Below are positions 13,696-53,172 of a DNA stretch of 64,000 nucleotides, piece by piece (the first letter of the stretch is position 1; the number at the start of each line of letters is the position of its first letter). This stretch comes from Ignavibacteriota bacterium (GTDB lineage Bacteria; Bacteroidota; Ignavibacteria; UBA10030), in the NCBI GenBank assembly GCA_963701295.1, contig OY969585.1:1600001-1664000 (forward strand), given 5' to 3'. The translations under genes were made by a program, and so were the position numbers. The notes under the pieces were generated by a model, which saw only the letters and a list, made by a program, of their open reading frames with translations, ran no database searches and was not told where the DNA came from.

Positions 13696-15027
13696 ATGAG
13701 GCACACCAAAGTGATCATCATGGGCGCAGCGGGACGGGATTTCCATAATTTCAATACTGTTTTCCGCATGGACGACCGCTATGAAGTCGTCGCGTTTACT
13801 GCAACACAAATTCCAAACATTGAAGAGCGTAAGTATCCTGCTGAACTGGCAGGAAAGTTTTATCCAAATGGCATTCCAATCTTTCCAGAATCGGATCTGC
13901 CGCGCCTTATTAAAGAACTGAGTGCAGATGAGGTTGTTTTCGCGTACTCAGATGTTTCATTTAACTACGTGATGAGCAAAGCAGCACTCGTAATGGCCTG
14001 TGGTGCTGATTTTAAATTGCAGGGTGCGCATCCAACGATGCTCAAGAGCAAAGTACCGGTCATCGCTGTGGTCGCAGTGCGTACGGGATCTGGCAAGAGT
14101 CAGACTTCGCGCAAGGTATGTCAATTACTCCGCGCAGCCGGAAAAAAAGTTGTTGCGATCCGTCATCCAATGCCGTACGGCGATCTGGTAAAGCAAAAAG
14201 TTCAACGGTATTCTTCTCTCGAAGACCTGCAAAAGTATGAATGTACTGTTGAAGAGATGGAAGAATATGAACCTCACATCGTCAACGGAACGATCATCTA
14301 CGCCGGAGTTGATTATGAAGTGATCCTTCACGCGGCAGAGAAGGAAGCCGACGTGATCGTGTGGGACGGCGGAAACAATGATATGTCATTCTATCAACCC
14401 GATCTTACCATCGTGGTAGCAGATCCGCACCGTCCGGGACATGAGATATCGTACTATCCCGGTGCAGTTAACATTCATCTCGCCGATGTTGTTGTTATTA
14501 ATAAAATAGATACAGCCTCGCGCGAAAATATCGACATTGTGCGGAAAAATATCGTCAGCACAAACCCGAAAGCAATCATTATTGAAGCGGCATCGCCCAT
14601 TACAGTAGAAGATGAAACCGTTATCCGCAATAAGCGCGTACTCGTGGTGGAAGATGGGCCCACATTGACCCACGGCGAGATGACGTATGGCGCCGGTATG
14701 GTTGCAGCTCGAAAATATGGTGCAAAGGAAATCATCGATCCGAGACCATGGGTCGTTAATTCTATTGCAGAAACATTCAAGAAATATCCGCATATTGGAA
14801 CATTGTTGCCGGCAATGGGATACGGTGGAAAACAGATCACGGATCTCGAGACGACAATCAATACAGTCGAATGCGACTCAGTCATCATCGGCACACCGAT
14901 CGACCTACGTCGTATTATTAAGATTAACAAACCAAGTACGCGTGTGCGATATGATTTGGATGAAATCGCAAAACCGGACTTGAATGAAATCTTGAACAAT
15001 TTTATGAGAAAACATGGATTGAAATAA
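13696..15027 (+). CDS. arcE: COG2403-type P-loop GTPase; probable arginine synthetase (ArcE-like)
   Basis: GAAGRDFHNFN, P-loop RTGSGKSQT, RHPMPYGDL, DGGNND, EDGPTLTHG, LPAMGY. Clustered with OTC and carbamate kinase. Confidence 0.75.
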   Translation: MRHTKVIIMGAAGRDFHNFNTVFRMDDRYEVVAFTATQIPNIEERKYPAELAGKFYPNGIPIFPESDLPRLIKELSADEVVFAYSDVSFNYVMSKAALVMACGADFKLQGAHPTMLKSKVPVIAVVAVRTGSGKSQTSRKVCQLLRAAGKKVVAIRHPMPYGDLVKQKVQRYSSLEDLQKYECTVEEMEEYEPHIVNGTIIYAGVDYEVILHAAEKEADVIVWDGGNNDMSFYQPDLTIVVADPHRPGHEISYYPGAVNIHLADVVVINKIDTASRENIDIVRKNIVSTNPKAIIIEAASPITVEDETVIRNKRVLVVEDGPTLTHGEMTYGAGMVAARKYGAKEIIDPRPWVVNSIAETFKKYPHIGTLLPAMGYGGKQITDLETTINTVECDSVIIGTPIDLRRIIKINKPSTRVRYDLDEIAKPDLNEILNNFMRKHGLK

Positions 15028-15035
15028 CATTATGT

Positions 15036-15063
15036 GTAGGGATACGCCATGTTGTGTCCCTGC
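15036..15063 (+). repeat. GTAG-type REP-like palindrome
   Basis: GTAGGGATACGCCATGTTGTGTCCCTGC, an imperfect hairpin beginning GTAG, between arcE and OTC. Confidence 0.55.
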
Positions 15064-15079
15064 CAAGGAGAAAAAAACC

Positions 15080-16093
15080 ATGAAACGAGATTTCCTCGGT
15101 ATTGCAAATTGGTCAACGAAGGAATTAACACAAATCCTCGACCTTTCAAAAAAAATGAAAGCAAATCCAAAACAGTTTGCCAAATCTTTAGAAGGTAAAT
15201 CGGTGGCGCTGATTTTTGAAAAGCAGTCGCTCCGCACGCATGTGACATTTGAGATCGGCATGAAACAATTGGGTGCTAACACGGTATATCTTACCAATGC
15301 CGATATCAGTCTGGGCAAACGTGAATCCATCTATGATGTTGCAAAAAATCTCGAACGTTGGGTTGATGCAATTATCATCCGAACGTTTGCCCAGAAGAAT
15401 ATCGACGATCTTGCAAAGTTTACTAAGATTCCCATTATCAATGCTCTGACAGACTTCGAACATCCGTGTCAAGCAGTCGGTGATTTCCTTACCATTCAAG
15501 AACACCTCGGCTCTTTTAAGGGAAAGAAACTCGCATGGGTTGGTGATGGGAATAACGTCTGTCACTCGCTTATGCTCATGGCAGCAAAAGTGGGAATGGA
15601 CTTTATTGCGATTACTCCTGCAGGTTTACAGCCTCATTATACGGTGGTAGAACGTGCTATGGAGATCGCTGCAACCACCGGAGCAAAGATCGAACTCTCG
15701 TGCAATCCATCGGAAGGCGTACATGATGCTGATGTTATTTACACAGACGTATGGGTCAGTATGGGTCAAGAGGCAGCTTTCGATACGAAGATGAAGGCGT
15801 TTGCAGGATTTCAAATTGATGCCGAGTTAATGAAACAGGCAAAACCCACAGCCATCTTTATGCACTGCCTGCCGGCACACCGCGGAGAGGAAGTAACAGA
15901 TGAAGTGATGGACTCATCTCAGTCCGTAGTATTTGATGAAGCAGAAAACCGGCTTCACACACAGAAAGCAATTCTGTATACGCTGTTGAAAGATAAGGGA
16001 CGTGAAAAACTCCATACTCGTCGCAGTCGGCGGAAACTCGCTCATCCGAGCCGGACAGCGCGGAACAATCGCCGAACAGTTCGTAAACGCTAG
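15080..16093 (+). CDS. arcB: Ornithine carbamoyltransferase
   Basis: SLRT, HPCQ, GDGNNV, DVWVSMG, HCLP, EAENR. An AAGGAG RBS precedes the ATG at 15080. The C-terminal tail overlaps the next gene. Confidence 0.93.
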   Translation: MKRDFLGIANWSTKELTQILDLSKKMKANPKQFAKSLEGKSVALIFEKQSLRTHVTFEIGMKQLGANTVYLTNADISLGKRESIYDVAKNLERWVDAIIIRTFAQKNIDDLAKFTKIPIINALTDFEHPCQAVGDFLTIQEHLGSFKGKKLAWVGDGNNVCHSLMLMAAKVGMDFIAITPAGLQPHYTVVERAMEIAATTGAKIELSCNPSEGVHDADVIYTDVWVSMGQEAAFDTKMKAFAGFQIDAELMKQAKPTAIFMHCLPAHRGEEVTDEVMDSSQSVVFDEAENRLHTQKAILYTLLKDKGREKLHTRRSRRKLAHPSRTARNNRRTVRKR

Positions 16094-16940
16094 ACTTACC
16101 GCTAAAAGTCTTGCAGGTATTGTTGCGCAGGGCTATGCGCTGATCATAACACATGGTAATGGTCCGCAGGTTGGTGCACAATTGTTACGTTCGGAGGCTG
16201 GCTCATCGCAGACGTACACACTTCCACTTGATGTATGTGTCGCCATGACGCAAGGTGAAATCGGTTTTATGCTGCAAAATTCCATGCAAACGGTACTCCA
16301 CAAACAAGGGATCAAACGTTCTGTTGTTACCGTTGTCACACAAGTCATTGTAGATAAAAACGACCCTGCATTTCAACGTCCGACAAAACCGATCGGTCCG
16401 TTTTATTCCAAAGAAGTTGCAGAACGAAAGAGAAGGGAATTAAGCTGGAGTATCATTGAAGACGCCGCTCGTGGTTATCGCCGTGTTGTTCCCTCTCCTC
16501 TACCACAAGATATCATTGAACTGGATGTAATAAAGGATTGTCTGGAACATAATAATGTCATCATAGCTGTAGGCGGCGGTGGAATTCCCGTGATACTTGA
16601 AAATGGTGAAGTCAAAGGCGTTGAAGCAGTGATTGATAAAGATCGTGCATCTGCATTGCTCGCCTCAAAATTAGGTATTGAGCATCTCATAATCTCGACA
16701 GAAGTGCCCGAGGTCTATATCAATTATAAGAAATTCGACCAGCAGGCGCTTCGAATCAGCACGGTCGCAGAAGCAAAAAGACATCTTGCTGATAGACAAT
16801 TTAGTGAAGGCAGTATGAAACCAAAGATTGAAGCTGCACTTGATTTTCTTTCGGCTGGCGGGCAACTTGTGACCATTACTGATCCCGGACATCTCCTCGG
16901 TGCGTTGGAAGGCAAAGCGGGAACGAGGATAACGTTATGA
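16002..16940 (+). CDS. arcC: Carbamate kinase
   Basis: VAVGGNSL, THGNGPQVG, PTKPIGP, RRVVPSP, GGGGIP, AVIDKD, GSMKPK. Confidence 0.96.
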   Translation: MKNSILVAVGGNSLIRAGQRGTIAEQFVNARLTAKSLAGIVAQGYALIITHGNGPQVGAQLLRSEAGSSQTYTLPLDVCVAMTQGEIGFMLQNSMQTVLHKQGIKRSVVTVVTQVIVDKNDPAFQRPTKPIGPFYSKEVAERKRRELSWSIIEDAARGYRRVVPSPLPQDIIELDVIKDCLEHNNVIIAVGGGGIPVILENGEVKGVEAVIDKDRASALLASKLGIEHLIISTEVPEVYINYKKFDQQALRISTVAEAKRHLADRQFSEGSMKPKIEAALDFLSAGGQLVTITDPGHLLGALEGKAGTRITL

Positions 16941-17176
16941 ATTTCAAATGGCAGATGACAATATGAATTGCATTTGTTCTACAATAATAGCCCTACCTGC
17001 TGAATTGCTTATGCTCTTTTGAACACTACAAAAATGGAAAGAATTCCACTGGGGATTCAAGATTATCAAAGACAATAAAATCGAAAGACAACACCTTTCT
17101 CTTAGGTTGTCATGCCGGGGAACGAAGCGTATATTTAAGTATTTATTTGTTGTGGAGCATAGAGCTTTAACGATAT

Positions 17177-18458
17177 ATGAAGAAACTGATTCCAGGACAG
17201 AATATCCGCATAAACATTGATCCATTTGCTTCTTTTCGATTCCCCGAATTTCGTTATCTCGTAGCCGCTTCATTTTTATTGACAATGGCATTGATGATTC
17301 AAGAAGTTGCCATTGGCTACGAACTGTACCGCATTACTCACGACCCGATGGCGCTGGGACTCATCGGACTTGTCGAAGCAATACCGTTCATTTCATTTAC
17401 GCTCTATGGCGGCCATGTTGCGGATCGTAGCAGCAAGCGGAAGGTGTTAATGTGGAGTGTCGGTGGAATCGCTCTCAGTTCGGCGATGCTTCAATTTTTT
17501 ACTCGGCAGCAGGATCAGATTCACCAGCCGGTACTGTTGGTTGCTATCTATGGATCAATATTTGTCATTGGATTATGCCGTGCATTTCTATCGCCGACAG
17601 CAACGTCGTTGCGCGGGATTCTTGTTCCACCTGCTTTGTTCGAAAATGCCGCAACATGGGGAAGTTCTTCATGGCAAGTTGGCGCCATTCTTGGTCCAGC
17701 TGCCGCCGGATTTCTCTATGCTTGGATCGGTTTTGCCAACACTTTACTGGTTGTCACACTGCTTGTCGTTTCATCTTTTCTGCTTTATTCTAAAATCAAG
17801 GATCGCCCGATTGCCCAGATTGCTCGGCATGGTAGTGTTATCGCAAGTATTAAGGAAGGCATACGGTTTGTTTTCAACACAAAAATTATTCTCTATTCAA
17901 TTTCGCTCGATCTTTTTTCCATCCTCTTTGGCGGCGTGATGGCGATACTGCCAATCTATGCACAAGATATTTTAAAAGTGGGTGCAGAAGGGCTTGGGAT
18001 ACTGCGCGCTGCCCCGTCTATTGGTGCAACGCTTATGCTCATTTTGCTTTCGCGTTTCTCGCCTATGGAGCATGCCTGGAAGAACTTACTTATTGCAGTT
18101 GCAGGATTTGGTGTGTGTATTTTGACCTTTGCTGTCTCGCCTTGGATGCTGGTCTCGATAGCAGCTTTGTTCCTGAGCGGTGCATTCGATAGCATTAGTG
18201 TGGTTATCCGAGCGACCATTCTCCAAGTGATGACTCCCAATGAAATGCGTGCACGTGTGATGGCCGTGAATGGAATCTTCCTCGCCTCGTCAAATGAAGT
18301 TGGTGCATTTGAATCCGGTACAGCAGCAAAACTATTCGGGACAGTACTATCAGTTACTTTTTGGCGGCACAATGACACTGCTCATCGTCAGCTGGGTATA
18401 TTTTAGAACCGGCGATCTGTTGAAGGCAAAAGTAAGAGGTCATGCCACTTCCAAGTAA
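17177..18458 (+). CDS. MFS transporter (MFS_3/EntS-like); +1 frameshift in the T-run at 18358-18362
   Basis: GGHVADR, SLDLFSILFGG, SNEVGAFESG. The last TM helix (FGGTMTLLIV) lies in the shifted frame. Confidence 0.85.
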
Positions 18459-18623
18459 AGATTTAAATCAATGAATCTGCGCCATTCCGTAATTGATTAT
18501 TTCAACATCCGGTGTAAGGATGTTCACCACTTATTGGAATGACGTTGAGTGTGGAATATAGATTGTTCAGCGTAATTGGTAAGAAATCAGTGATTTATTT
18601 AGGGTAGTAATTTATATTTCCTT

Positions 18624-18638
18624 TGGCACAAATATTGG
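18624..18638 (+). promoter_or_regulatory. Possible sigma54 promoter for the first GcvH-like gene
   Basis: TGGCAC-AAATA-TTGG has correct spacing, but the -12 element is GG rather than GC. Confidence 0.45.
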
Positions 18639-18737
18639 GACATGATTATGGGAAAGTTCAAGAGAAAGTATTCTACGAGCATATATGCAAAAGTGCAAGT
18701 TGAGAAATCTAAATTTATTTTTTGAGGAGAAACAATC

Positions 18738-19406
18738 ATGGTAGCATTATTCGTTGTCGCCACAATCCTTCTCTGTGTTGGAATTGAACTCCTCCGAGAT
18801 CGAACCAAGCAGCGGAAAGAAGCACCATCAACTGCTCAAATAGCGGCAGATCAATTTTTTTTGCCGAAAGGATTCTTCATCAGCAAAGCCCACACATGGG
18901 TCGAGCTTACGTTTGCCGGTGAAGCACGTGTTGGTGTTGATGACTTTGCGCAAAAAGTCATCGGATCAATTGACAGAATCGAAGTTGCACCACTCAACAA
19001 GGAACTGAATAAGGGAGACACACTTTTCACTGTGGCGCAGGGCAATCGTGTGCTCTCTATTCCTGCTCCGATATCCGGAAAAATATTGGCGGTGAACGAA
19101 TCACTGCTTGCTTCCCCCAAAATGTTTCATCAAGACCCATATGTAGCTGGATGGGTTGCAGTAATCGTTCCCAAAAATATTTCAGCGGAATTGCATTTAC
19201 TCGCCATCGCCGATGATGCGGCAAAATGGTTGAAAAAAGAAGTCAACCGCTTCCGCGATTTCGTAAAAGAGCAGGCGCAAATCGGTGTGCCGGTACCCGC
19301 AGGCGCTACCATGCTGGATGGAGGCGCACCATTGAATGGAGTGCTGGGGCAGTTTAATGAAAACACATGGAATGCTTTTCAGAAAGAATTTTTGAAGACA
19401 GAATAA
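18738..19406 (+). CDS. GcvH-like protein with an N-terminal membrane anchor, lacking the lipoyl-lysine motif
   Basis: HTWV...VGVDDFAQKVIG...APISGKILAVN...DPYVAGW. No ESVK motif. Confidence 0.85.
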   Translation: MVALFVVATILLCVGIELLRDRTKQRKEAPSTAQIAADQFFLPKGFFISKAHTWVELTFAGEARVGVDDFAQKVIGSIDRIEVAPLNKELNKGDTLFTVAQGNRVLSIPAPISGKILAVNESLLASPKMFHQDPYVAGWVAVIVPKNISAELHLLAIADDAAKWLKKEVNRFRDFVKEQAQIGVPVPAGATMLDGGAPLNGVLGQFNENTWNAFQKEFLKTE

Positions 19407-19440
19407 ATACTAATGCGCGCACTATCGAATCTTTTTACAG

Positions 19441-20262
19441 GTGAAAAATATGGAAAAGAAATCAACTCAGAGTATTATTCCTCAAGGCGAATTGCGATGT
19501 GTCTGGATGGATGCAGGGGTAACAGGATTTAAACTCTGTGATCAAAAATTCCATTGTGAGTTTTGTGAATTTAATAACACCATCCAGAAACGGCAATTAG
19601 GAACTGTAAATTCTCGTAATGAGGAAGAATCGGTGATCCTCATGGAAGGGAAAGCAATGACCACCGATACAATCTTTAGAAACACATTGAAGAATTATCT
19701 TGAAGGTTTACATGCGGTTGTGGTACCGCAGGATAGAATGTATAATCGCAGCCACTATTGGGTTCGGGAAAACGAGACAGGCAAGTATCGAATCGGAATC
19801 AATCACATCCTTGCAAATTTCTTTCAACCGATACTCAGCATTGTAATCTCAAAAGCTCCATTAATCATACGACGACATGATCCATTCTGTTGGATTATCT
19901 TACCAGGGGGTGCCATTACACTTCGCTCTCCCGTCGATGCAACTATTTGTAAGTTTAATCCGGCTTTGCAGCAAAAACCGAATTTGCTGGGTATGTCGCC
20001 GTTTGACGAAGGTTGGATTATGGAGATTACCACAAAGACAAAAGGACTCCATGGTTTTAGTTCTGCCCAAGATTCGCGGCAAAATACCGAACGAACAATA
20101 CGAAGCATTGAACATTCATTTGCACACGCTTTCCGACATGATCATCCTTCAGCAGGTACAACATTATTTGACGGCGGTATTGGTGTAAACAGCATCGAAA
20201 GCATCCTCGGACCTAAGGTTTACACAGAGGTTGTGAATCGAATAGTGCATTTCCCTCATTAA
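19441..20262 (+). CDS. GcvH-like protein with an N-terminal 4-Cys motif
   Basis: CVWMDAG...KLCDQKFHCEFC; HYWV...IGINH...SPVDA...PFDEGW. No lipoyl motif. Confidence 0.8.
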   Translation: MKNMEKKSTQSIIPQGELRCVWMDAGVTGFKLCDQKFHCEFCEFNNTIQKRQLGTVNSRNEEESVILMEGKAMTTDTIFRNTLKNYLEGLHAVVVPQDRMYNRSHYWVRENETGKYRIGINHILANFFQPILSIVISKAPLIIRRHDPFCWIILPGGAITLRSPVDATICKFNPALQQKPNLLGMSPFDEGWIMEITTKTKGLHGFSSAQDSRQNTERTIRSIEHSFAHAFRHDHPSAGTTLFDGGIGVNSIESILGPKVYTEVVNRIVHFPH

Positions 20263-20283
20263 CTTCAAATAATCTCTATTTCT

Positions 20284-20321
20284 AGCCTTTCCTATTACTT
20301 TTTTGGGAGAGGCTTTCTTTT
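20284..20321 (+). terminator. Intrinsic terminator after the second GcvH-like gene
   Basis: AGCCTTTCC...GGAGAGGCT stem followed by a T-rich run. Confidence 0.55.
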
Positions 20322-20381
20322 TATTGAGACTTTAAGCCATTTTCACCACAGATTGTTGAGTTTATCAACTCTATTTGTTAT

Positions 20382-20396
20382 TGGCACAAATCTAGC
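20382..20396 (+). promoter_or_regulatory. sigma54 -24/-12 promoter upstream of the sensor kinase
   Basis: TGGCAC-AAATC-TAGC with exact GG-N10-GC spacing. A sigma54 activator is encoded in the same operon. Confidence 0.6.
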
Positions 20397-20420
20397 CAAA
20401 AAACTGTATATTAATTCAAC

Positions 20421-22028
20421 TTGAACACTATGCGATTTTTCCATTTACTTGGTTTTCGATTATTTCTCGGTATTGCAATAATCGTGCTCATTGGAACGAC
20501 GCTGTTCACAATGTTACTTGTGGACTGGCAATCTGGCAAGTATATAGCTTCTGCTAAACAGTCGGCAACGAATATCAGTGATCTTATTAGTCGATCCACC
20601 CGTTATAGCATGCTGCTCAACCGCCGGGAGGATATTTACGAAATTATAAAAACAATTGGAAATGAACCACGCATAGAAGGAATACGTATTATAAATAAAA
20701 AAGGGATGGTTACATTTTCAACACAAGAATCCGAAGTTGGGAAAAATATCGATATGACTGCCGAGGCGTGCATTGGTTGCCATGCAACAGGGAAGCCGGT
20801 TGTTCCGCAGAAAGATCCGACACTCAAGCGCATTTTCGATTCGCCGAAAGGATATCGTGTTATTGGGATCATCACTCCTATCCGAAATGATGCAAGTTGT
20901 TCCACAAATGATTGCCATGCGCATAGCCCTTCCCAAACCGTGCTCGGAATTCTTGATGTCATGCTCCCGCTTCAGGAAGTCGATCAGGATATTGTACAAT
21001 TTGAACGTACGCAAATTCTTGGATCGTTTTCACTTGTCGTTCTGCTCACTGGCTTCGTTACCATCTTCATCTGGAGGATGGTCAATATTCCTGTCAAGAG
21101 ACTTGTGATTGGGACTCAGGAAATCGTGAAAGGGAATCTCGATTATCGCATTGATGTCCAAACGAGTAATGAAATTGGATCACTAGGAATGTCCTTCAAT
21201 CAGATGACACAAGAGTTAAAACGCGCACGGGTAGAACTGACTGCTTGGACACAAACACTCGAACAGCGTGTTGCTGAGAAGACCGACGAGCTTCGCCGTG
21301 CACAAAAGCACATGGTACAAATTGAAAAGATGGTGTCACTTGGTACCCTTGCTGCTACTGTTGCGCATGAATTGAATAATCCTTTGGAAGGTATCCTTAC
21401 GTACGCCAAGTTGCTGCGGAAAAAAATAGAACGAGGAATTCCATCGGCGGAAGACACACAAGAAATGATCGGTGAGCTGACGCTCATTGCGGACGAGACG
21501 GCGCGTTGTGGCAACATCGTCAAGAATCTCTTGCTATTTTCACGGGAGAAAGTCGGCGAGTTTAAAGATTCCGATCTGCGGTTGATCATCGAGCGAAGTT
21601 TAAAGCTTATCGACCATCACTTGAAAATGAATAATATTATATCTGTCGTTGAGATGGGAGATAAACAGGTTGTTTTGTACTGCGATCCATATCAATTGGA
21701 AGAGGCGCTGCTTGCGCTTGAGATCAATGCTGTTGAGGCGATGACCGGCGGCGGTTCGTTCTACATCCGTGTAGAAGAAGTTGAATATCTTCATGCAGTT
21801 CAGATCACGGTGCGTGATACAGGGAGCGGAATTACTGAAGAAGATATGTCGCACATCTTCGAACCTTTTTATACAACAAAGAAAGAAGGTAAGGGTACTG
21901 GACTCGGCCTCTCGGTGGTCTATGGTATTATCGAGCGTCATAGCGGTTCAATATCTGTAGATTCAAAACAAGGCATGGGCACAACATTTACTATAACACT
22001 TCCACGACAAACTTTGCCGAATGGATAG
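20421..22028 (+). CDS. Sensor histidine kinase with periplasmic heme-c motifs, HAMP, HisKA and HATPase domains
   Basis: Two TM helices flank CIGCH and CSTNDCH. H-box AHELNNPL; FEPFYTTK; GTGLGL. Confidence 0.92.
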   Translation: MNTMRFFHLLGFRLFLGIAIIVLIGTTLFTMLLVDWQSGKYIASAKQSATNISDLISRSTRYSMLLNRREDIYEIIKTIGNEPRIEGIRIINKKGMVTFSTQESEVGKNIDMTAEACIGCHATGKPVVPQKDPTLKRIFDSPKGYRVIGIITPIRNDASCSTNDCHAHSPSQTVLGILDVMLPLQEVDQDIVQFERTQILGSFSLVVLLTGFVTIFIWRMVNIPVKRLVIGTQEIVKGNLDYRIDVQTSNEIGSLGMSFNQMTQELKRARVELTAWTQTLEQRVAEKTDELRRAQKHMVQIEKMVSLGTLAATVAHELNNPLEGILTYAKLLRKKIERGIPSAEDTQEMIGELTLIADETARCGNIVKNLLLFSREKVGEFKDSDLRLIIERSLKLIDHHLKMNNIISVVEMGDKQVVLYCDPYQLEEALLALEINAVEAMTGGGSFYIRVEEVEYLHAVQITVRDTGSGITEEDMSHIFEPFYTTKKEGKGTGLGLSVVYGIIERHSGSISVDSKQGMGTTFTITLPRQTLPNG

Positions 22029-22069
22029 ACACATAATGAAAAGAAGAATTCTATCAAGGGATATGAATT

Positions 22070-23425
22070 ATGACTGAAAAAAAGTCTACACCACAAAGCA
22101 TCATGATTGTTGATGACGAACTGATTGTCCGTGAATCACTTACGAAGTGGTTCCGCCAAGATGGGTACCACGTCGAATCAGCGGAAGATGCAAACCACGC
22201 ACTTAAATTAATGAATGAAGGTCTATGGGATCTGGCATTACTCGATATCAAGATGCCTGGAATGAGCGGGCTTGATCTTCAGAAACGCCTCAAGGAGATT
22301 AGCAAGAACACAAGTGTTATCATGATCACGGCATTCGCCTCAGTCGAGAGCGCTGTGCAGGCGCTCAAAGAAGGTGCGTTCGATTATGTCACCAAGCCCA
22401 TCGATCCGGAACATCTTTCGCATCTTGTTACAAATGCTCTTAAACAGAGAAAATTAGTAGAAGAAAATGTTCAACTTCGCGAACAGATTTCGGATATAGC
22501 CAAAGCAAACGAGATCGTTGGTGAAAGTCAGCAAGTCCAAAAAGTGGTAGAGCTGGCAAAGACCGTTTCCAAAACCGATACAACAGTGATGCTGCGCGGT
22601 GAAAGCGGGACCGGCAAGGAGCTGATTGCACGAGTCATTCACGCTAACAGCAGCCGTCGTTACTTTCCCATCATTGCCGTCGATTGCGGCGCAATGGCTG
22701 AAAGCCTTCTGGAGAGCGAGCTGTTTGGTCATGAGAAAGGTTCATTTACTGGCGCACAGTTTCGTAGAAAGGGAAAATTTGAATTGTCTGATGGTGGAAC
22801 AATCTTTCTCGATGAAATCGGAACAATAAGCCAGAAAATGCAAGTGGAGCTCTTGCGTGTTCTTGAGACAAAGCAATTCACGCGTGTCGGTGGAAATGAA
22901 GTCGTATCCAGCGATTTTCGCGTGGTCTGCGCTACGAATCGTGATCTCGAAGCCGCGATTAAGGAGGGATTGTTTCGTGAAGATCTCTATTATCGTCTAA
23001 ATGTTTTTACGATTGTGATTCCCCCGCTGCGTGAGCGCCGACAGGATATTCCATTACTTGCTGAGTATTTCTGCAATAAACATGCAGCCGCTATGCACAA
23101 AGCGGTCACCGAAATCAGTCCGAATGCAATGGATATTATGGTGCAGTATGATTGGCCGGGCAATGTACGGGAATTGGAAAATGTCATGGAACGTGCGATG
23201 GTGCTTGCAAAGCCGCCGGCAATTCAGCATACCGATTTACCTTTCCAGCTTGCATCAAAAGCGCATGGGCTGCAGGCAGATTCGATTGCAGCGATTGAAC
23301 GAGCCCACATCGAAATGATTCTGCACCGAAGCGGATGGAATATTTCACGGTCGGCGGATATTCTCGATATTGATCGCGTCACGTTGTACAATAAAATCTC
23401 CAAGTACGGTTTAAAGAGACCGTAG
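22070..23425 (+). CDS. sigma54-dependent NtrC/ZraR-family response regulator
   Basis: REC domain, GESGTGKE, ELFGHEKGSFTGA, WPGNVREL and a C-terminal HTH. Confidence 0.96.
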   Translation: MTEKKSTPQSIMIVDDELIVRESLTKWFRQDGYHVESAEDANHALKLMNEGLWDLALLDIKMPGMSGLDLQKRLKEISKNTSVIMITAFASVESAVQALKEGAFDYVTKPIDPEHLSHLVTNALKQRKLVEENVQLREQISDIAKANEIVGESQQVQKVVELAKTVSKTDTTVMLRGESGTGKELIARVIHANSSRRYFPIIAVDCGAMAESLLESELFGHEKGSFTGAQFRRKGKFELSDGGTIFLDEIGTISQKMQVELLRVLETKQFTRVGGNEVVSSDFRVVCATNRDLEAAIKEGLFREDLYYRLNVFTIVIPPLRERRQDIPLLAEYFCNKHAAAMHKAVTEISPNAMDIMVQYDWPGNVRELENVMERAMVLAKPPAIQHTDLPFQLASKAHGLQADSIAAIERAHIEMILHRSGWNISRSADILDIDRVTLYNKISKYGLKRP

Positions 23426-23428
23426 GCG

Positions 23429-23971
23429 ATGTCGTCGATTCTGATCGTTCCGATTCGGCCGGTCGATCATGCGGAATTAACCTCGCTCATCGCACCGTTA
23501 ATAAGTATATTTGAGCAATCGATTTCCATCGAAGAGTCGAGATACGTTGATCTGGCGTTCGCATTTGATTCGTACCGCAACCAATTCAATTCCACTTCCA
23601 TTATTGCAGCACTTCTCGAAACCTATACAACACATCAAGGGAAAATCATTGGGATAACAACGGTGGATCTTTTTGTACCTGTGCTTACGTATGTATTCGG
23701 AGAAGCCCAGCTAGATGGTAAAGCTGCTGTGCTTTCTTCGTTTCGGCTCAGAGAAGAACTCTTCGGATTGGATGCGAATCCCGAGTTAGAGCATATTCGT
23801 TTATTGAAAGAAGCTGTTCATGAGCTTGGCCATACTTTCGGACTTATTCACTGCCATAGACCGGCGTGCGTCATGCACTCCTCTACTTTAGCCGAAGAGA
23901 TCGATGTGAAAGGAAAGAATTTTTGTGAAGAGTGTGAGCAGACAATAAGGGAAGCAACAACGATGAGTTGA
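23429..23971 (+). CDS. Archaemetzincin (peptidase M54)
   Basis: KEAVHELGHTFGLIHC...CVMHSS...FCEEC. Confidence 0.93.
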   Translation: MSSILIVPIRPVDHAELTSLIAPLISIFEQSISIEESRYVDLAFAFDSYRNQFNSTSIIAALLETYTTHQGKIIGITTVDLFVPVLTYVFGEAQLDGKAAVLSSFRLREELFGLDANPELEHIRLLKEAVHELGHTFGLIHCHRPACVMHSSTLAEEIDVKGKNFCEECEQTIREATTMS

Positions 23972-24015
23972 ATCTTATTGGACAACTTAATAACCTGTTC
24001 TATACATAAGACAAT

Positions 24016-24450
24016 TTATCGAGCGCCAGTAATATAATTTTCCAATTGCTTGATTGTGTCTTCATGCTGGGAAATGATGGCTTTCACGACATCTCCAATT
24101 GAAATCATGCCGACGAGTTTACCGTTTTCTAATACGGGGAGATGACGGATGTGTTTGCCCGTCATGAGGGCCATGCAATCTTCAATTGATTGATCTGGTG
24201 TTACAGAAATCACTCCAGAAGTCATGACATTTCGTATAGCAATATTATGAGAGGATTCTCCTTTTAACACGACCTTTCTTGCATAGTCCCGTTCTGAAAA
24301 GATTCCTATCAATTGATTGCCTTCGATCACTAAGAGTGCACCGACATTTTTATCAGCCATTACTTTCAGGGCATCAAATACCAAAGCATCCGGTGCGGTC
24401 GACCAGATATCATTACCTTTGGATTGCAACACACTTCTGACGGTTGTCAT
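24016..24450 (-). CDS. CBS domain protein
   Basis: GIFSERDYARKV, IRHLPV, SIGDVVK. The start is taken as MTTVRS at 24450. Confidence 0.92.
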   Translation of the reverse strand: MTTVRSVLQSKGNDIWSTAPDALVFDALKVMADKNVGALLVIEGNQLIGIFSERDYARKVVLKGESSHNIAIRNVMTSGVISVTPDQSIEDCMALMTGKHIRHLPVLENGKLVGMISIGDVVKAIISQHEDTIKQLENYITGAR

Positions 24451-24609
24451 AATACGACTCCTCTCATTACCGTTTATCACTAAACACACCATGGATGGTA
24501 TTGATTCCCTCTATAAAATGTGAAAGTCTACGAAGAAAATCAATAAACAATATATCTTATGATTGTGCTTGTATAAGAAATGATGCTTTTATAAGTCTCC
24601 CATTGATTC

Positions 24610-25746
24610 TTAGAGAGTATCCAATGAGGTTACTAATTGATCTACACATTGTGTAACATCAAAGCGTTTAAGAGCGTCGGTTCGCGCTTCCGATGAAAAC
24701 GATGATCGTAGTTGCTTATCCTTGAGCAATTTCAAGATTGCTTCAGCAAGAGCGGGCACATTCTGCGGAGGAGTAAGAAGCCCAGTGGAGCCGTGTGTAA
24801 TAATTTCCGGTACACCTCCGGAGTTTGTTGCAACAATTGCTTTTCCCATCGCCAATGCTTCAACGAGAACAAAGCCAAATGTTTCGGCGTGGGAAGGGAG
24901 GACGAAGATATCGATAGCAGACATAAATTCAGGAACCGCGTCCGTAAATGGAAGAAACTGAACTTTGTCGTTCACTCCAAGTTCGATACTCAGATCTCTC
25001 AAGTTTTTTTTGAATCCATACTGCCCTTCAGTTTCATCTCCTGCGATAACGAAATGCAAATTAGTTTGATGTTTTAAAAGAATCGGAATAGCTCGAATGA
25101 ACTCCTCCTGTCCTTTTTGTAGGTCCAATCTACCTAATACACCAACAACAAGTTTTGATTGCGGAATGTCAAACTGTATTCTGGCTGTTTTTTGATCATA
25201 GAGACAGGGATTGAAGCGTTGCAAGTCTGTGCCAATGGGAATGACGTTAATTCGTCCCTGAGGCATGCGTGTATGCTCAATAACTTCCTGCTTCATCTTC
25301 TTTGTTAGAGTAATCCAGAGTGAAAGATGAGAGTACATCCATGTGTGGAGAATATCGCGTTTATTTATACCAAACTGCATTTCCTGGTAGAACACAGGTT
25401 TCGCATACGGATAGAGCACATGTGCGATTGTAACAATACTCATGTCTTTTGATTGCATTATAACAACGACGTCTATACGGTGGGATCGAAAAATGCGCGC
25501 TAAATGGATTGAAGCCGTAACATCGCCATATTTCAATTTTGTCTTTAAGAGTTCTACTTTAAGATCATATTGTCTAGCAAACTGTGCCAGCGATGTGTCC
25601 GGTGGCACGATGAGAAGGCAATCTGCCATTCGCTTTTTGAATTCAGATGCAAGTTTCAATATACTTAATTCTAATCCCCCAAAAGAGGAGGAGAAACAAA
25701 CAAAGGCGATGTTGCAGTTTTTTGAAAATGTTATCTCATCATTCAT
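24610..25746 (-). CDS. Glycosyltransferase family 4
   Basis: GGLE, GRLDLQKG, ETFGFVLVEALAMG. Confidence 0.92.
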   Translation of the reverse strand: MNDEITFSKNCNIAFVCFSSSFGGLELSILKLASEFKKRMADCLLIVPPDTSLAQFARQYDLKVELLKTKLKYGDVTASIHLARIFRSHRIDVVVIMQSKDMSIVTIAHVLYPYAKPVFYQEMQFGINKRDILHTWMYSHLSLWITLTKKMKQEVIEHTRMPQGRINVIPIGTDLQRFNPCLYDQKTARIQFDIPQSKLVVGVLGRLDLQKGQEEFIRAIPILLKHQTNLHFVIAGDETEGQYGFKKNLRDLSIELGVNDKVQFLPFTDAVPEFMSAIDIFVLPSHAETFGFVLVEALAMGKAIVATNSGGVPEIITHGSTGLLTPPQNVPALAEAILKLLKDKQLRSSFSSEARTDALKRFDVTQCVDQLVTSLDTL

Positions 25747-48070: not shown

Positions 48071-48749
48071 GTGAATGAATTAGTTGAAAAAATAGGTCAA
48101 TGTGTAGAACGAGGAAAGATTAATAAAATATCATCATATCCTAACGATATGAAAGGAGTGGATGGTGCCGAAGAGTTAACCGTGCAAGCATTGGAAACCG
48201 CTGTGAAACCTAGTGCCATACTTCAGGCATGTACCTGACGGCATGCAGCGTATTGGAGAGCGATTCAGTAAAAATGAAGTGTTTGTTCCGGAACTTTTGA
48301 TGGCAGCGAAAGCGATGCATACTGTCATGGTTCAGCTTGAGCCATTTTTTAAATCGGGGAGTGTGAAGGTGAAAGGAAAATTTATTCTTGGAACCGTTAC
48401 AGGCGACTTACATAACATCGGTAAAAATCTTGTTCGGATGGTTGTAGAAGGAAATGGTTGGCAGGTTGTTGATTTGGGTGTAGATGTCAAACCTGCAAAG
48501 TTTTTAGAAGCGATTAAAAATACTCCGGGATGTATAGTCGGGTTAAGCACTTTATTGACAACAACAATGGCAAATATGTCGAAAACCGTACAAGAAATCA
48601 AAACCAATTTTCCTACGACGAGTATTATCGTAGGTGGTGCGCCGCTGACAATGGAGGCTGCACTCAAAATGGGTGCTGATGGATATTCTCCTGACCCGCA
48701 AGGTGCGGTCGCATTTCTTAACAAAGTCAGTGGAGTGAATATTGCTTGA
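48071..48749 (+). CDS. Corrinoid (cobalamin-binding) protein; +1 frameshift near 48233-48236
   Basis: GTG at 48071 gives MNELVEKIGQCVERGK...LQACT. The sequence continues in the next frame as DGMQRIGERF...FVPELLMAAKAM, GDLHNIGKN, IVGGAP. Confidence 0.88.
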
Positions 48750-48808
48750 AAGAAACTGTTCCTTTGTAACACAGAGCTGTATACTTGAAGAAATTTGCAG
48801 GGTAGAAA

Positions 48809-49693
48809 ATGAGCTCACTTCTTGCGGCACTTAAAAGTAAAAACATTCTCATCTCAGATGGAGCGTGGGGTACATTCCTGCATCAACGTGGATTGCAGCC
48901 GGGGGAATGTCCGGAGTTATGGAATATTACCCATCGCAATGATGTTTTCGCAATTGCAAAAAGCTATATAGATGCCGGAGCTGATATGATCCTTACCAAC
49001 AGTTTTGGCGGCAGCCCCTCAAAATTAGAACATTTTGGACTGCAGAACCGTTGTGCGGAATTGAATGAAACCGCCGCTGTTATATCCAGAACTGCGGCAG
49101 GCACCGATCATCTTGTACCTGGCTCCATTGGTCCTACGGGTGTTATGTTGATGATGGGAGAGGTTTCTGAAGAGACACTCTACGATGGATTCTGCGTTCA
49201 AGCGAAGGCTCTTAAAAGAGGAGGCGTTGACGCCATTTGTATTGAAACCATGTCCGCTCTTGATGAAGCTTGTCTCGCAATCCAAGCAGTCCGCAAATCT
49301 ACCGGTTTGGAAGTTGTATGCACGTTTACTTTTGAAAAAACTGTTTCCGGCGAATATCGGACTATGATGGGTGTCTCACCCGCTGAAATGGTTCTAGCTG
49401 TTAAGGAGGCTGGAGCAGTTATCGTCGGGACGAATTGCGGTAATGGATTCGATCAGATGATTGACATAGTTCAGGAAATCAGAAGTATTGATTCAGTAAC
49501 GCCCATTCTTGTTCATGCGAATGCCGGAAAACCGATATTTCAGAATGGCAAAACGGTTTTTCCTGAAACACCAGAAATGATGGCAGCGAAGGTCCTGGAA
49601 ATAATAAAATCCGGGGCAAATATTATCGGCGGTTGCTGCGGTACAACACCAACCCATATCCAAAAATTGGTTGATGCAGTGAGAATTCTCTGA
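48809..49693 (+). CDS. Homocysteine S-methyltransferase (stand-alone MetH Hcy-binding domain)
   Basis: DGAWGT, TNSFG, IETM, GTNC, NAGKP, GGCCGT (Zn ligands). Confidence 0.93.
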   Translation: MSSLLAALKSKNILISDGAWGTFLHQRGLQPGECPELWNITHRNDVFAIAKSYIDAGADMILTNSFGGSPSKLEHFGLQNRCAELNETAAVISRTAAGTDHLVPGSIGPTGVMLMMGEVSEETLYDGFCVQAKALKRGGVDAICIETMSALDEACLAIQAVRKSTGLEVVCTFTFEKTVSGEYRTMMGVSPAEMVLAVKEAGAVIVGTNCGNGFDQMIDIVQEIRSIDSVTPILVHANAGKPIFQNGKTVFPETPEMMAAKVLEIIKSGANIIGGCCGTTPTHIQKLVDAVRIL

Positions 49694-50448
49694 TGACCGA
49701 CGGCTTTTCTCATGTTGAGAAAGAAAAAGATGTTTTTGAAGCCATGATTGACTTCAAAGATCTTAAAGTAAGCAAGACTGAAGTTGTCTTATCACTCGGA
49801 TACAGCGATGCTATTCTTCCCGCTCATTTTGAAAAGATGATCGATACTATTCTTGATCAACTGTCAAACTATTGTACAGTACAGGCAGGATATCGGATTC
49901 TTGATGTCCAAAAATCGGGAAAACGAAACGACGGCTTAGTGATTGGTGGTTCGTTCTTCGCGCTGAAGAAGATCGTTACCAGCCATCTCAAAAAATCCGA
50001 AAAAGCAGTGTTGTTTGTATGCACCATCGGTTCTGGGATGGAAACATGGGCAAAAGAATTATCCAACGAAGGCGATATTGCATTAAGCTATCTTGTTGAT
50101 ACGGTTGCATCGATAACGGTAGAACAGGCAGCCGATGTGCTTCATGATTATATAGGAAAGCATATGCTGGCTCTTGGATTGAAAATTACGAACAGGTACA
50201 GTCCGGGCTATTGTGATTGGCTGGTGGCGGAACAGCACCTTCTTTTTTCATTTCTGCCGGCTCAATTCTGTGGAATAACACTCACAGAATCCGCGCTCAT
50301 GATCCCCATAAAATCTGTGAGCGGAATTATTGGCGCCGGGACGGCAGTCAAGAGAGTTGATTATATGTGTAATACATGTGGTATGAAGGATTGTACATAT
50401 CGCGCATACCGTCGAGCAAAGACAAAACGTGCTGATCGGAAAATGTAA
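49693..50448 (+). CDS. Stand-alone MetH reactivation (SAM-binding) domain
   Basis: CTIG, RYSPGYCDW, PIKSVSGIIG and C-terminal CxxCxxxxC. Confidence 0.88.
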   Translation: MTDGFSHVEKEKDVFEAMIDFKDLKVSKTEVVLSLGYSDAILPAHFEKMIDTILDQLSNYCTVQAGYRILDVQKSGKRNDGLVIGGSFFALKKIVTSHLKKSEKAVLFVCTIGSGMETWAKELSNEGDIALSYLVDTVASITVEQAADVLHDYIGKHMLALGLKITNRYSPGYCDWLVAEQHLLFSFLPAQFCGITLTESALMIPIKSVSGIIGAGTAVKRVDYMCNTCGMKDCTYRAYRRAKTKRADRKM

Positions 50449-50508
50449 AGGTAAAGAACGATCATAAAAAAAATCAAGAGATCATTGCCTACGTAGAGAT
50501 GGGAAAAA

Positions 50509-51534
50509 ATGACTGATCAACAATGGAAAACTTTGCAGGGAATAATGAGGGGCGAAGCCGTAAAACCTTTACCGGTTGGTTTTATTATTGATTGCCCGTG
50601 GCTTCCCAATTGGTATAATATCAAGATACTCGATTACTTCTCCAATGACGAATTGTGGCTGAATGCAAATTTAAAGGCGTTGAAAGACTTTCCGGATGTA
50701 ATGTTTTTACCTGGCTTCTGGTCCGAATTTGGCATGTGCACAGAACCATCGGCATTTGGAGCACGCTGTACCTTCCCGCTGAATGAATTTCCACATGCTC
50801 ATAGAATCCTCCAATCAGTTGATGATATCGACTCGTTACCGCAGCCGAACCCCAAGACGGATGGCCTGTTGCCATTTGTACTGAATCGTTTAAAGCTTGC
50901 CCGGCCAAAAATTGAAGTGGCAGGGCATAAAATCCGGTTCGCAGTTGCCCGCGGCCCCTTGAATATTGCCAGCTATCTTATGGGTTTGACAGAATTTTTA
51001 ACAATGATGATGATGCGGCCCGAAAAAGCCGAAGCACTCATGAAAAAGATTACAACATTTCTCAAAAACTGGCTGCATTTGCAAATGGAAACATTTTCAT
51101 CTATCGATGGCATTTTCATCCTGGATGATATCATCGGGTTTATGGGTGAAGAAGAGTTCCGTAATTTTGGCATGCCGTACTTTAAGGAATTGTACAATAC
51201 CAATGTCTCTGTTAAATTCCTGCATAATGACGCTCCCTGTAAGGTGTCTGCGCCTCTTCTGCCTGAGATCGGAGTAAACTTGTTCAACATGGGTTTCGAT
51301 ATTACACTGAATGAATTGAAGCAGTTGACACAGAATAAAGTTACACTGCTCGGCAATATTCCTCCGCGTGATGTATTGGCAAACGGTGATGCCGCTCAGG
51401 TGATCCAAGTGACTACTCAGCTTGTAGATTCCTTAAAAGATACATCCAGAGTGATTTTTTCATGTGGAGGCGGTATACCGCCGGGAGTTAGGTCGGAGAA
51501 TATCAACGCATTTATCCGCGCCGTCAGAAAGTAA
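50509..51534 (+). CDS. URO-D/MtaA-CmuA family methyltransferase-like protein
   Basis: RGPLNIA, FLHNDA, LLGNIPP, FSCGGG. Lacks the RQAGR motif of true HemE. Confidence 0.8.
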   Translation: MTDQQWKTLQGIMRGEAVKPLPVGFIIDCPWLPNWYNIKILDYFSNDELWLNANLKALKDFPDVMFLPGFWSEFGMCTEPSAFGARCTFPLNEFPHAHRILQSVDDIDSLPQPNPKTDGLLPFVLNRLKLARPKIEVAGHKIRFAVARGPLNIASYLMGLTEFLTMMMMRPEKAEALMKKITTFLKNWLHLQMETFSSIDGIFILDDIIGFMGEEEFRNFGMPYFKELYNTNVSVKFLHNDAPCKVSAPLLPEIGVNLFNMGFDITLNELKQLTQNKVTLLGNIPPRDVLANGDAAQVIQVTTQLVDSLKDTSRVIFSCGGGIPPGVRSENINAFIRAVRK

Positions 51535-51900
51535 TTGCAAAGCATTACGAATTGATGTTACGTACGTAGTCAGTGACCAACCTTTGAGAAATACGTTTGG
51601 CGTTTCTCCGTGTTTTTAAAAAAAGTAAAAGTTCTCACAAAACTGCAAAGAATGAAAAGAAATTTAACCGTGCAGAATCCGGTTTCATCAAAACACAAAA
51701 AATGATAATGTTCAATAAGAGATGAATAAATGAAAAAACAAAACTGTAAACTATATAGATACAAACATTCTTGATAGTGCATAGGTGAAACTTATCATGA
51801 ATAAAATACACAAAAGATCACTAGGAACATTGCTCTTTGGAACAGCAATAGCAATCAATATAACAGAAGCATGCATGAGAAAAAGAGAAAGAACACTTCG

Positions 51901-53172
51901 ATGGCAGAAAATGAAAAAGGCAAAAAGAGAATAGGTTCTTATCGTTGGACGATCTGTGCGTTGCTATTCTTTGGCACAACGATCAACTACATTGATCGGC
52001 AAGTCTTGGGTATTCTTGCGCCGTTGCTGCAGAGTGAAATCAAATGGACCGAATCTGAATATGGATGGATTGTAACAGCGTTTCAAGCCGCTTATGCTCT
52101 TGGCCTTCTTTTGTTCGGCTGGCTTATTGATAAATATGGAACAAAAATCGGTTATTTCATTTCGGTAACTGCGTGGAGTTTTGCGGCAATAGCACATGCG
52201 ATAGTGAAAACACCATTTGGGTTTGGTGCTGCACGTGCAGGACTCGGATTAAGCGAGGCAGGGAATTTTCCTGCCGCCATTAAAACGGTTGCTGAATGGT
52301 TCCCCAAAAAGGAACGTGCCCTGGCGACAGGTATATTTAATTCTGGCGCAAATATCGGTGCAGTTGTTGCACCGGCGGCAGTACCGTGGCTCACAATTAC
52401 GTATGGATGGCAGGCTGCTTTTGCCGTCACAGGTATGGTCGGCTTTATTTGGGTAGTTTTTTGGACCCTTCTGTATGAAAAACCAGAAAAACAAAAACGT
52501 CTTTCGTCTGCTGAATTGGATTTTATTTTAAGTGATCGAGAGAAAGTGATTTCGGAAAAAGTACCATGGATCGGATTGTTAAAATATCGTCAGACGTGGG
52601 CTTTCGTTCTCGGAAAATTTTTTACTGATCCAATCTGGTGGTTTTATCTCTATTGGCTGCCAAAATTTTTAAATAAAACATATGGATTAACACTCACGAA
52701 TCTAGGCTTGCCGCTGATTACGATCTATATGATGACGAGTATAGGAAGTATCGGGGGAGGATGGTTGTCTTCGTTCTTTATACGACGAGGCGCTGCAATT
52801 ATGAAAAGCCGGGAAGTAGTCATGCTTCTGTGCGGGATTTGTGTATTACCAATCATCACAGCTTCAGAAGTATCAAATGTCTGGAGTGCAGTGGGACTTA
52901 TCGGACTGGCTGCTGCGGCACATCAAGGATTTTCTGCTAATCTCTATACGATGGTGTCGGATATGTTTCCCAAGAAGGCAGTTGGCTCGATTGTCGGATT
53001 GGGAGGAATGGCGGGTTCTGTGAGCGGAATGCTCTTTTCTGTAACGACAGGATATATTTTAGAATGGACAGGAAGCTATATCTCGCTTTTTCTTATCGCT
53101 GCTCCAACATATTTGATTGCGTTGAGTCTCATTCATGTGCTAACACACAAAGTAAAACCGGTGGTTTTTTGA
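51901..53172 (+). CDS. exuT: MFS transporter, ExuT-like hexuronate permease
   Basis: YRWTICALLFFGTTINYIDRQ, EAGNFPAAIKTVAEWFP, DPIWWFYLYWLP, AHQGFSAN. Confidence 0.8.
   Translation: MAENEKGKKRIGSYRWTICALLFFGTTINYIDRQVLGILAPLLQSEIKWTESEYGWIVTAFQAAYALGLLLFGWLIDKYGTKIGYFISVTAWSFAAIAHAIVKTPFGFGAARAGLGLSEAGNFPAAIKTVAEWFPKKERALATGIFNSGANIGAVVAPAAVPWLTITYGWQAAFAVTGMVGFIWVVFWTLLYEKPEKQKRLSSAELDFILSDREKVISEKVPWIGLLKYRQTWAFVLGKFFTDPIWWFYLYWLPKFLNKTYGLTLTNLGLPLITIYMMTSIGSIGGGWLSSFFIRRGAAIMKSREVVMLLCGICVLPIITASEVSNVWSAVGLIGLAAAAHQGFSANLYTMVSDMFPKKAVGSIVGLGGMAGSVSGMLFSVTTGYILEWTGSYISLFLIAAPTYLIALSLIHVLTHKVKPVVF

Follow-up and report, generated by a model that had tools for sequence, protein, structure and literature searches.

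We analyzed a 64,000-nucleotide stretch of the genome of an Ignavibacteriota bacterium (contig OY969585.1, positions 1,600,001 to 1,664,000; hereafter the window), in which five co-oriented open reading frames (ORFs) on the plus strand (18738–23971) form a real and conserved gene set. The genes encode two proteins with a GcvH-like fold, H1 and H2, a sensor histidine kinase, an NtrC-type sigma-54 activator, and an archaemetzincin (M54) protease. Most relatives carry a fuller, seven-gene cassette with iron–sulfur (Fe–S) and NrfD genes in addition, of which this locus is a reduced version, and H1 and H2 are under purifying selection after the loss of this module. Because the genome has lost the quinone-redox genes that normally stand between H1 and H2 and both H genes are intact, the H pair probably serves the signaling system rather than the quinone module. 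This natural deletion, present in a single-contig genome, separates two roles for the H proteins, namely accessory to the kinase and subunit of a redox complex. The parts come from known families; put together, they make up a novel form of two-component system equipped with auxiliary proteins, one that is apparently undescribed, literature searches (with subscription papers and supplements outside their coverage) having returned no description of the five-gene set. Below, the source genome carrying the window is called G000, compared genomes have G-numbers and loci L-numbers, and coordinates are window positions unless marked C1.

Loss of the Fe–S/NrfD module

The preliminary description of this DNA had placed five co-oriented genes here and had the protease gene beginning 3 bp after the regulator gene. 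The ORF coordinates bear out both statements, the M54 start lying 3 bp past the regulator stop, and a comparison of neighborhoods shows that the genes stay together in relatives. A first contig scan with one query protein returned eight close loci and one spurious match (L009); in four of the eight, an Fe–S and/or NrfD gene precedes H2 (three complete, one truncated where the contig stops), and the other four have neither. In a non-random set of 48 genome regions, picked for family spread, the usual order is H1–FeS–NrfD–H2–kinase–regulator–protease. The H1–H2 junction of the window (19407–19449, plus strand) is the site where most relatives hold about 2.1 kb with these two genes, which match best HmcB/HybA and HmcC/HybB (NF045715, NF045714, NF008134, and NF008133), with HmcB/HmcC scores below cut-off. 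The closest known counterparts are subunits of Desulfovibrio Hmc (HmcB/HmcC) and of hydrogenase 2 (HybA/HybB), from which the relatives' pair differs in usually having no catalytic subunit beside it.

The G000 assembly is a single contig with 99.3% completeness, and searches of the whole genome with hidden Markov models, tblastn, and blastn, which detected the L001 control, found no NrfD family member, no PF03916 match, and no HmcB-like or HmcC-like gene or remnant. The H1–H2 junctions of G000, G202, G203, and G207 (43–46 bp) are homologous, with none of 300 shuffles reaching the score. An assembly artefact as the cause of the deletion was ruled out, as three other genomes share the homologous junction. 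The G102 junction is not homologous to the G000-type junction, and a FastTree phylogeny (L051 omitted, its kinase ORF being split) places G102, G029, and G163 outside the G000 group. In all, 13 genomes from four families have a cassette without the Fe–S and NrfD genes. For nine of these, no HmcC-like NrfD was found genome-wide, G203 having a partial PF03916 match at a contig end. Module-less cassettes added by following protease genes comprise the five-gene form (G139 and G194), a rearranged form (G068), and a four-gene form that consists of H1–kinase–regulator–protease only (G123, G131, and G171).

Selection was assessed from the ratio of nonsynonymous to synonymous substitution rates (dN/dS). 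The genomes with the common deletion junction, G000, G202, G203, and G207, were compared in all six pairings, at dS values of 0.05–0.48. H1 has a dN/dS of 0.11–0.23 and H2 of 0.17–0.26, the kinase of 0.09–0.13, the regulator of 0.05–0.12, and the protease of 0.14–0.31. For the pair G000–G203, a Fisher test against neutrality gave p values of 8e-8 (H1) and 1e-17 (H2).

In a class sample of 201 genomes, 80 have cassette-type H2. H1-type proteins were found in 42 out of 301 genomes drawn from the phylum, a sample in which close kin are overrepresented. Metagenome loci with guanine-plus-cytosine contents of 0.35–0.67 hold the same gene set. The set of H, kinase, regulator, and protease genes also adjoins a different, Qrc-like module (L085 and L105). 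This second cassette type (L085 in G184, L105 in G128, and L201 in G151) has the order H, small multiheme, molybdopterin-oxidoreductase-like, Fe–S, NrfD, H, resembles Qrc/ACIII, and has its own kinase, protease, and regulator. A third type (L093–L107 and L048) combines Fe–S, NrfD, a 13-heme cytochrome, a Cache kinase, and two receiver–H fusions, with neither a DGG tail (see below) nor a protease. G211 is the only genome in which NiFe hydrogenase genes (L004, 16882–19854 of that locus) converge on the cassette; in G000, three genes resembling hydrogenase large subunits are found at other places in the genome.

GcvH-fold proteins without a lipoyl lysine

H1 (18738–19406, plus strand; 222 residues) has an N-terminal membrane anchor, seen as a single hydrophobic segment, followed by the GcvH-fold domain and a helical tail with a DGG motif (residues 194–196). 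H2 (19441 or 19450–20262, plus strand; 273 or 270 residues) is soluble, as no hydrophobic segment was found in it, and carries a four-cysteine motif (C17, C30, C36, and C39), the GcvH-fold domain, and a DGG tail (residues 241–243). Both proteins pass the Pfam GCV_H cut-off (75 bits for H1 and 51 bits for H2), and both fall under the cut-offs of all four NCBIfam GcvH-type models, including TIGR00527, NF045810, and TIGR03077. The lipoyl lysine of Thermus GcvH (1onl) aligns with Asn103 of H1, and this column holds lysine in only 7 of 126 H1 homologs. The matching H2 column, in a register counted by hand from a conserved proline, is Gly153, with lysine in at most 1 of 55 homologs.

Judging from these alignments, lipoylation would be impossible at the canonical site of either protein, and the pair is almost certainly not a lipoyl carrier. 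A continuing tie to lipoate metabolism, with the H proteins lipoylated at a shifted lysine or acting as decoys for GcvP, GcvT, or ligases, is highly improbable. It would fit the kept GcvH fold, the presence of a glycine cleavage system in G000, and the lysine found one position downstream of the lipoyl site in 40 of 126 H1 homologs. That position is arginine in 75 of the 126, including the window H1, so the mixture of arginine and lysine does not describe a modification site, and true carriers require a strictly conserved lysine for lipoylation, according to the accessible part of a recent study (10.64898/2026.10.01.755906). The true GcvH of G000 (126 residues) keeps its lysine, has no DGG tail, and is encoded elsewhere in the genome, as is GcvP. 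Among the 50 window ORFs covered by the Pfam and NCBIfam profile scan (ORFs overlapping longer ones and the last 2 kb were outside it), none belongs to a GcvT, GcvP, or LipA-type family, which also leaves the window without a recognized gcv or lipoate gene; other loci were labeled with cassette profiles only.

The homology between H1 and H2 runs through the tail (hhalign probability 99.4). The DGG motif is near-invariant in both families, with Asp in 125, Gly in 126, and Gly in 124 of the 126 H1 rows and the motif in 54 of 55 H2 rows. A predicted model of H2, with a predicted local distance difference test (pLDDT) score of 80, superposes on the Escherichia coli H protein (3a7l) with a root mean square deviation of 1.7 Å (E 1.7e-10); for H1, the barrel-sandwich fold is supported by sequence alone. 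These results agree with the preliminary description, which had both homologs keeping GcvH motifs around a lost lipoyl lysine, an anchor on H1, a cysteine motif on H2, a shared DGG motif foreign to true GcvH, and no gcvT, gcvP, or lipA in the window. Compared with GcvH (PF01597 and TIGR00527; 1onl and 3a7l), LbpA, and GcvH-L, the two proteins share the core fold and motifs; they differ in lacking the lipoyl lysine, in the anchor or four-cysteine domain in front, in the helical DGG tail of about 50 residues, in scoring below the curated NCBIfam cut-offs, and in having no gcv or lipoate genes recognized in their window. The locus is thus a case of the GcvH fold reused without lipoate.

The same description had cast the H pair as metal- or Fe–S-binding accessory subunits of a two-component system. 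Its accessory part stands, the pair having been kept after loss of the redox module; its metal part applies to H2 only, where the motif is of a metal-binding type, and not to a core function, because the H2 of one family lacks the cysteine motif (four of four f23 loci examined) and three f19 cassettes (G123, G131, and G171) have no H2 at all. It is accordingly distinctly unlikely that the central function is cytoplasmic metal or Fe–S redox sensing by H2, with H1 tethering H2 to the kinase and the protease incidental. H2 is soluble and its four cysteines are kept in 50–51 of 55 aligned homologs, the remainder being gaps, as such a sensor would have it; H1, DGG, and the protease nevertheless persist where the cysteine domain or H2 is absent, the domain is poorly modeled (pLDDT 40–66), and the ESM Atlas returned no usable structural look-alike for it.

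At E ≤ 1e-30 the H1 profile gathers 797 clusters, including binding-protein–H, receiver–H, and tandem fusions. Elsewhere, then, the H domain is fused to receiver domains or placed behind a periplasmic binding-protein fold, as is usual for signaling domains. A 1391-residue protein (P0243) shows, by eye, several tandem H-like domains before FAD-oxidase-like and CCG-type Fe–S-like domains. Two of 72,556 plasmid records match H2, and both are ordinary gcvH.

Heme-type sensor, sigma-54 regulator, and upstream elements

The kinase (20421–22028, plus strand; 535 residues) consists of a transmembrane segment, a single Cache domain, a second transmembrane segment, HAMP, HisKA with His316, and HATPase. 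Its heme-c-type motifs, reported in the preliminary description, are a CxxCH (residues 117–121) and a CX4CH (160–166), and both are invariant in 41 of 41 aligned sensors, though one has CX3CH. The periplasmic domain is predicted as a single Cache fold (pLDDT 84) with WalK, KinD, and CitA as best matches; the fold search also returns GSU0935 and GSU0582 (3b42 and 3b47), and a sequence search of the PDB gave weak KinD matches only. The sCache_heme family is defined by a CXXCH insertion and, in the portion of its description available (PMC12889525), shows nitric oxide (NO) sensor properties in a signaling-fused member and redox properties in a stand-alone one. In our own comparison with that text, the CX4CH occupies the place of the sCache_heme heme motif, before the last strand, and the CXXCH lies mid-domain. 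As in sCache_heme proteins (PF11845/Tll0287, GSU0582/GSU0935), the window sensor would have a periplasmic single Cache between two transmembrane segments, followed by HAMP; it differs in having CX4CH before the last strand and a second, canonical CxxCH. Given this CX4CH, the extra CXXCH, and a weak or missing PF11845 match, we consider the window sensor a relative of sCache_heme and not a member, so that a two-motif Cache-heme sensor stands beside the recently defined single-heme family. The modeled domain looks like a heme-based redox or gas (NO) sensor, with heme attachment predicted. A Cache_heme–HAMP receptor bound by a cytoplasmic partner at its HAMP domain, described in the accessible text of 10.64898/2026.05.25.727664, is a precedent for accessory binding.

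The regulator (22070–23425, plus strand; 451 residues) has a receiver domain with Asp59, an AAA+ sigma-54 domain with a GSFTGA loop, and a Fis-type helix-turn-helix. With the HisKA histidine and HATPase boxes of the kinase, an encoded RpoN, and −24/−12 promoters, the NtrC-type features are all present; G000 encodes 13 sigma-54 activators in all. The window contains only two matches to the sigma-54-type pattern, one before H1 (18624–18638, plus strand) and one before the kinase (20382–20396, plus strand), the latter preceded by an inverted repeat (20355–20369). The chance mean is 0.34, and 4 of 100 shuffles reach two. The H1 site is matched by the pattern in seven of the eight genus loci with H1 sequence, with a near match in the eighth, and the kinase site in eight of nine genus loci; outside the genus, the pattern occurs in a minority of loci. 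Scans for sigma-70 promoters and terminators in the window stayed at chance (13 versus 13.3 and 5 versus 5.1).

The first sigma-54-type promoter is preceded, at a distance of about 125 bp, by a 32-bp element (18499–18530, plus strand) that is present in eight of eight genus loci examined and is a candidate activator site. A matrix built without G000 scores the G000 site at 51.6 and the next site in the genome at 14.6, and a regulon search with it turned up no further strong site in that genome. The two sigma-54-type promoters and the genome-unique upstream element suggest autoregulation. The lack of a second strong copy would also suit a remnant in slow decay, left with autoregulation but no output, as would dN/dS ratios of about 0.2 in close pairs against about 0.1 in deep ones. 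Saturation distorts the ratio in the deep pairs, however, and after the common deletion all five genes are intact with their catalytic motifs, at dN/dS values well below 1 and dS up to 0.48. The reduced form moreover recurs in four families, and we regard a decaying remnant as quite improbable.

A functional analogue of the regulator is Geobacter BccR (GSU0598), a sigma-54 regulator that, according to the part of the report available (10.1101/2021.04.15.440034), activates the quinone-linked cbcBA module from a −24/−12 promoter with a change in redox potential. Its output there is a bc-type cytochrome, and that text mentions neither H-fold proteins nor a protease. G000 itself has an operon of seven multiheme cytochromes and a cytochrome b-like gene (C1:1343722–1356176), with a sigma-54-type site at C1:1343541 and followed by what by eye are two probable heme-lyase ORFs; it is a candidate target of the regulator. 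In G102, a similar operon (NapC-like, Rieske, and cytochrome b) is the divergent neighbor of the cassette.

Archaemetzincin, DGG tail, and the proposed feedback switch

The protease (23429–23971, plus strand; 180 residues) has an intact HEXXHXXGXXH-C motif, a Met-turn, and CxxC, no signal or transmembrane segment, and a score of 155 bits against NF033823 (cut-off 145). The motif HEXXHXXGXXH-C-X4-C-X-M-X16/17-CXXC is present with X16, where the published consensus has X17, and the catalytic Glu132 is invariant in 62 of 62 M54 homologs. The window protease shares the full active-site and four-cysteine motif of known archaemetzincins such as AfAmzA (PMC3427221); it differs in being bacterial, in starting directly behind a response regulator gene, and in co-occurring with DGG-tailed H proteins. 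According to the accessible portion of that 2012 report, natural substrates of archaemetzincins were then unknown; AfAmzA has a small closed S1′ pocket and an acidic/hydrophobic groove, the latter suggesting basic or hydrophobic substrates.

The relation between tail and protease was counted in 80 loci of at least 12 kb, some of them from one genome or from close kin, which were kept in. Of these, 64 have a DGG-tailed H protein, and they carry M54 in 55 cases, a sigma-54 regulator in 56, a Cache kinase in 57, and NrfD in 57. The other 16 have DGG-less H only; all hold receiver–H fusions and none has M54. The tail is found in 0 of 44 receiver–H fusions. Where a DGG-H locus has no local M54, all five genomes checked have M54 elsewhere, and in five receiver–H-only genomes checked no M54 exceeds the cut-off. 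Within the class sample of 201 genomes, 77 of the 80 with cassette-type H2 have M54, against 16 of the 121 others (overlap taken from lists read by hand). Among 20 further M54 loci, 15 lie beside a Cache kinase, 11 of these with a DGG-H in the locus, one is beside a sigma-54 domain only, and four stand in unrelated contexts on a separate branch. M54 copies on a separate branch, outside cassettes, are seen at L202–L204 (G072, G167, and G091) and L197 (G047). The protease is a faithful partner of the DGG-tailed H cassette, and the co-occurrence of tail and protease is a strong lead but not proof that the two act on each other.

Taken together, we tentatively propose, with slightly less than even confidence in the whole, a self-activating redox/NO sigma-54 two-component system in which the H-fold pair are cytoplasmic feedback adaptors with DGG tails recognized by the archaemetzincin. 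Heme c would be attached to both sensor motifs, and the periplasmic Cache sensor, predicted to be di-heme, probably responds to redox state or NO. The kinase would phosphorylate the regulator, as the intact His316 and Asp59 and the adjacency of the genes suggest. The regulator could then bind the 32-bp element and drive H1–H2, with Fe–S/NrfD where present, from the promoter at 18624, and kinase, regulator, and protease would be transcribed from the one at 20382. Membrane-tethered H1, optionally with H2 as a metal- or thiol-sensing partner, would tune the kinase or the regulator, and the protease may cut or bind the DGG tail and so reset the system, a step to which gene history and co-occurrence point. 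The quinone module would be an exchangeable output or client and not the reason for keeping the H pair.

Several observations weigh against this proposal. For the promoter, the −12 element before H1 (GG) and the GSFTGA loop (GAFTGA expected) are non-canonical, and each of the 13 sigma-54 activators of G000 might be the one that binds the 32-bp element. For the sensor, PF11845 does not match the window protein and matches 7 of 41 homologs weakly (best E 0.028). For the tail, the counts are not independent, because they largely compare one inherited cassette type with another, and G160, with a DGG-less H2 and no M54, is the only joint loss seen. By analogy, the AfAmzA groove would fit an Asp motif poorly, although its small S1′ pocket would fit Gly. 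The deletion history is not clean either, since G176 (L001, C8) keeps Fe–S and NrfD yet nests, with weak support, among the deletion carriers, possibly through recombination or regain. All module-less genomes except G000 are drafts. Finally, comparisons between module-bearing genomes show saturation (dS > 1.2), so that H1 and H2 may have undergone a mild relaxation after the loss.

Other observations on this side bear on what the H proteins serve. NrfD is still present in 57 of the 64 DGG loci, so that in most loci the H genes flank Fe–S/NrfD, and split cassettes (L056, L057, L091, and L096; G120, G012, and G152) keep H with Fe–S/NrfD and have kinase, regulator, and protease elsewhere. Four of the 13 module-less genomes (G029, G068, G123, and G131) hold a different operon of Fe–S genes of the Tat type and NrfD elsewhere, and their H proteins could accordingly work in trans for a complex. 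H1 and H2 might on these grounds belong to membrane redox complexes, whether NrfD-type or other, as structural or assembly subunits that the two-component system does no more than coregulate; in that case the G000 pair would act in trans for another complex, for example, the multiheme/Rieske–cytochrome b operon, which has its sigma-54-type site and in G102 adjoins the cassette divergently, with the protease as an enzyme of maturation. We consider this unlikely, given that both H genes are under purifying selection in a genome without NrfD and that minimal H1–kinase–regulator–protease operons and receiver–H fusions exist.

Within the proposed feedback switch, that the DGG tail is a substrate of the protease we think rather unlikely. 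Equally speculative is the broadest form of the proposal, in which DGG-tailed H proteins are natural substrates of bacterial archaemetzincins and H1, kinase, sigma-54 activator, and protease make up a portable four-gene regulator with a protease-controlled feedback switch on a di-heme NO/redox kinase. If true, a metabolic carrier fold would have been turned into a membrane-tethered switch, and a four-gene regulator would plug onto different respiratory modules or run with none. For a protease family that is represented by crystal structures but, as far as the AfAmzA report goes, has no known natural substrate, the locus offers particular proteins as candidate partners, together with a defined motif.

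A single peat metatranscriptome contains 6% of the words, with related-strain contigs that span 30 of 30 bins of 17000–25000 and the flanks too, which neither shows transcription nor ranks the genes. Next to the locus, a gene for a CBS-domain protein (24016–24492, minus strand) is convergent on the protease gene and is retained in the closest relatives only. Upstream, 13696–16940 holds a GTPase-like gene, an ornithine carbamoyltransferase gene, and a gene of the amino-acid kinase family (carbamate-kinase-like), a cluster of the arginine/ornithine catabolism type that is syntenic among close relatives. Farther downstream, a corrinoid methyltransfer cluster (48213–53172) encodes a B12-binding protein, a homocysteine methyltransferase, a methionine-synthase activation domain, a UroD-like protein, and a major facilitator superfamily transporter.

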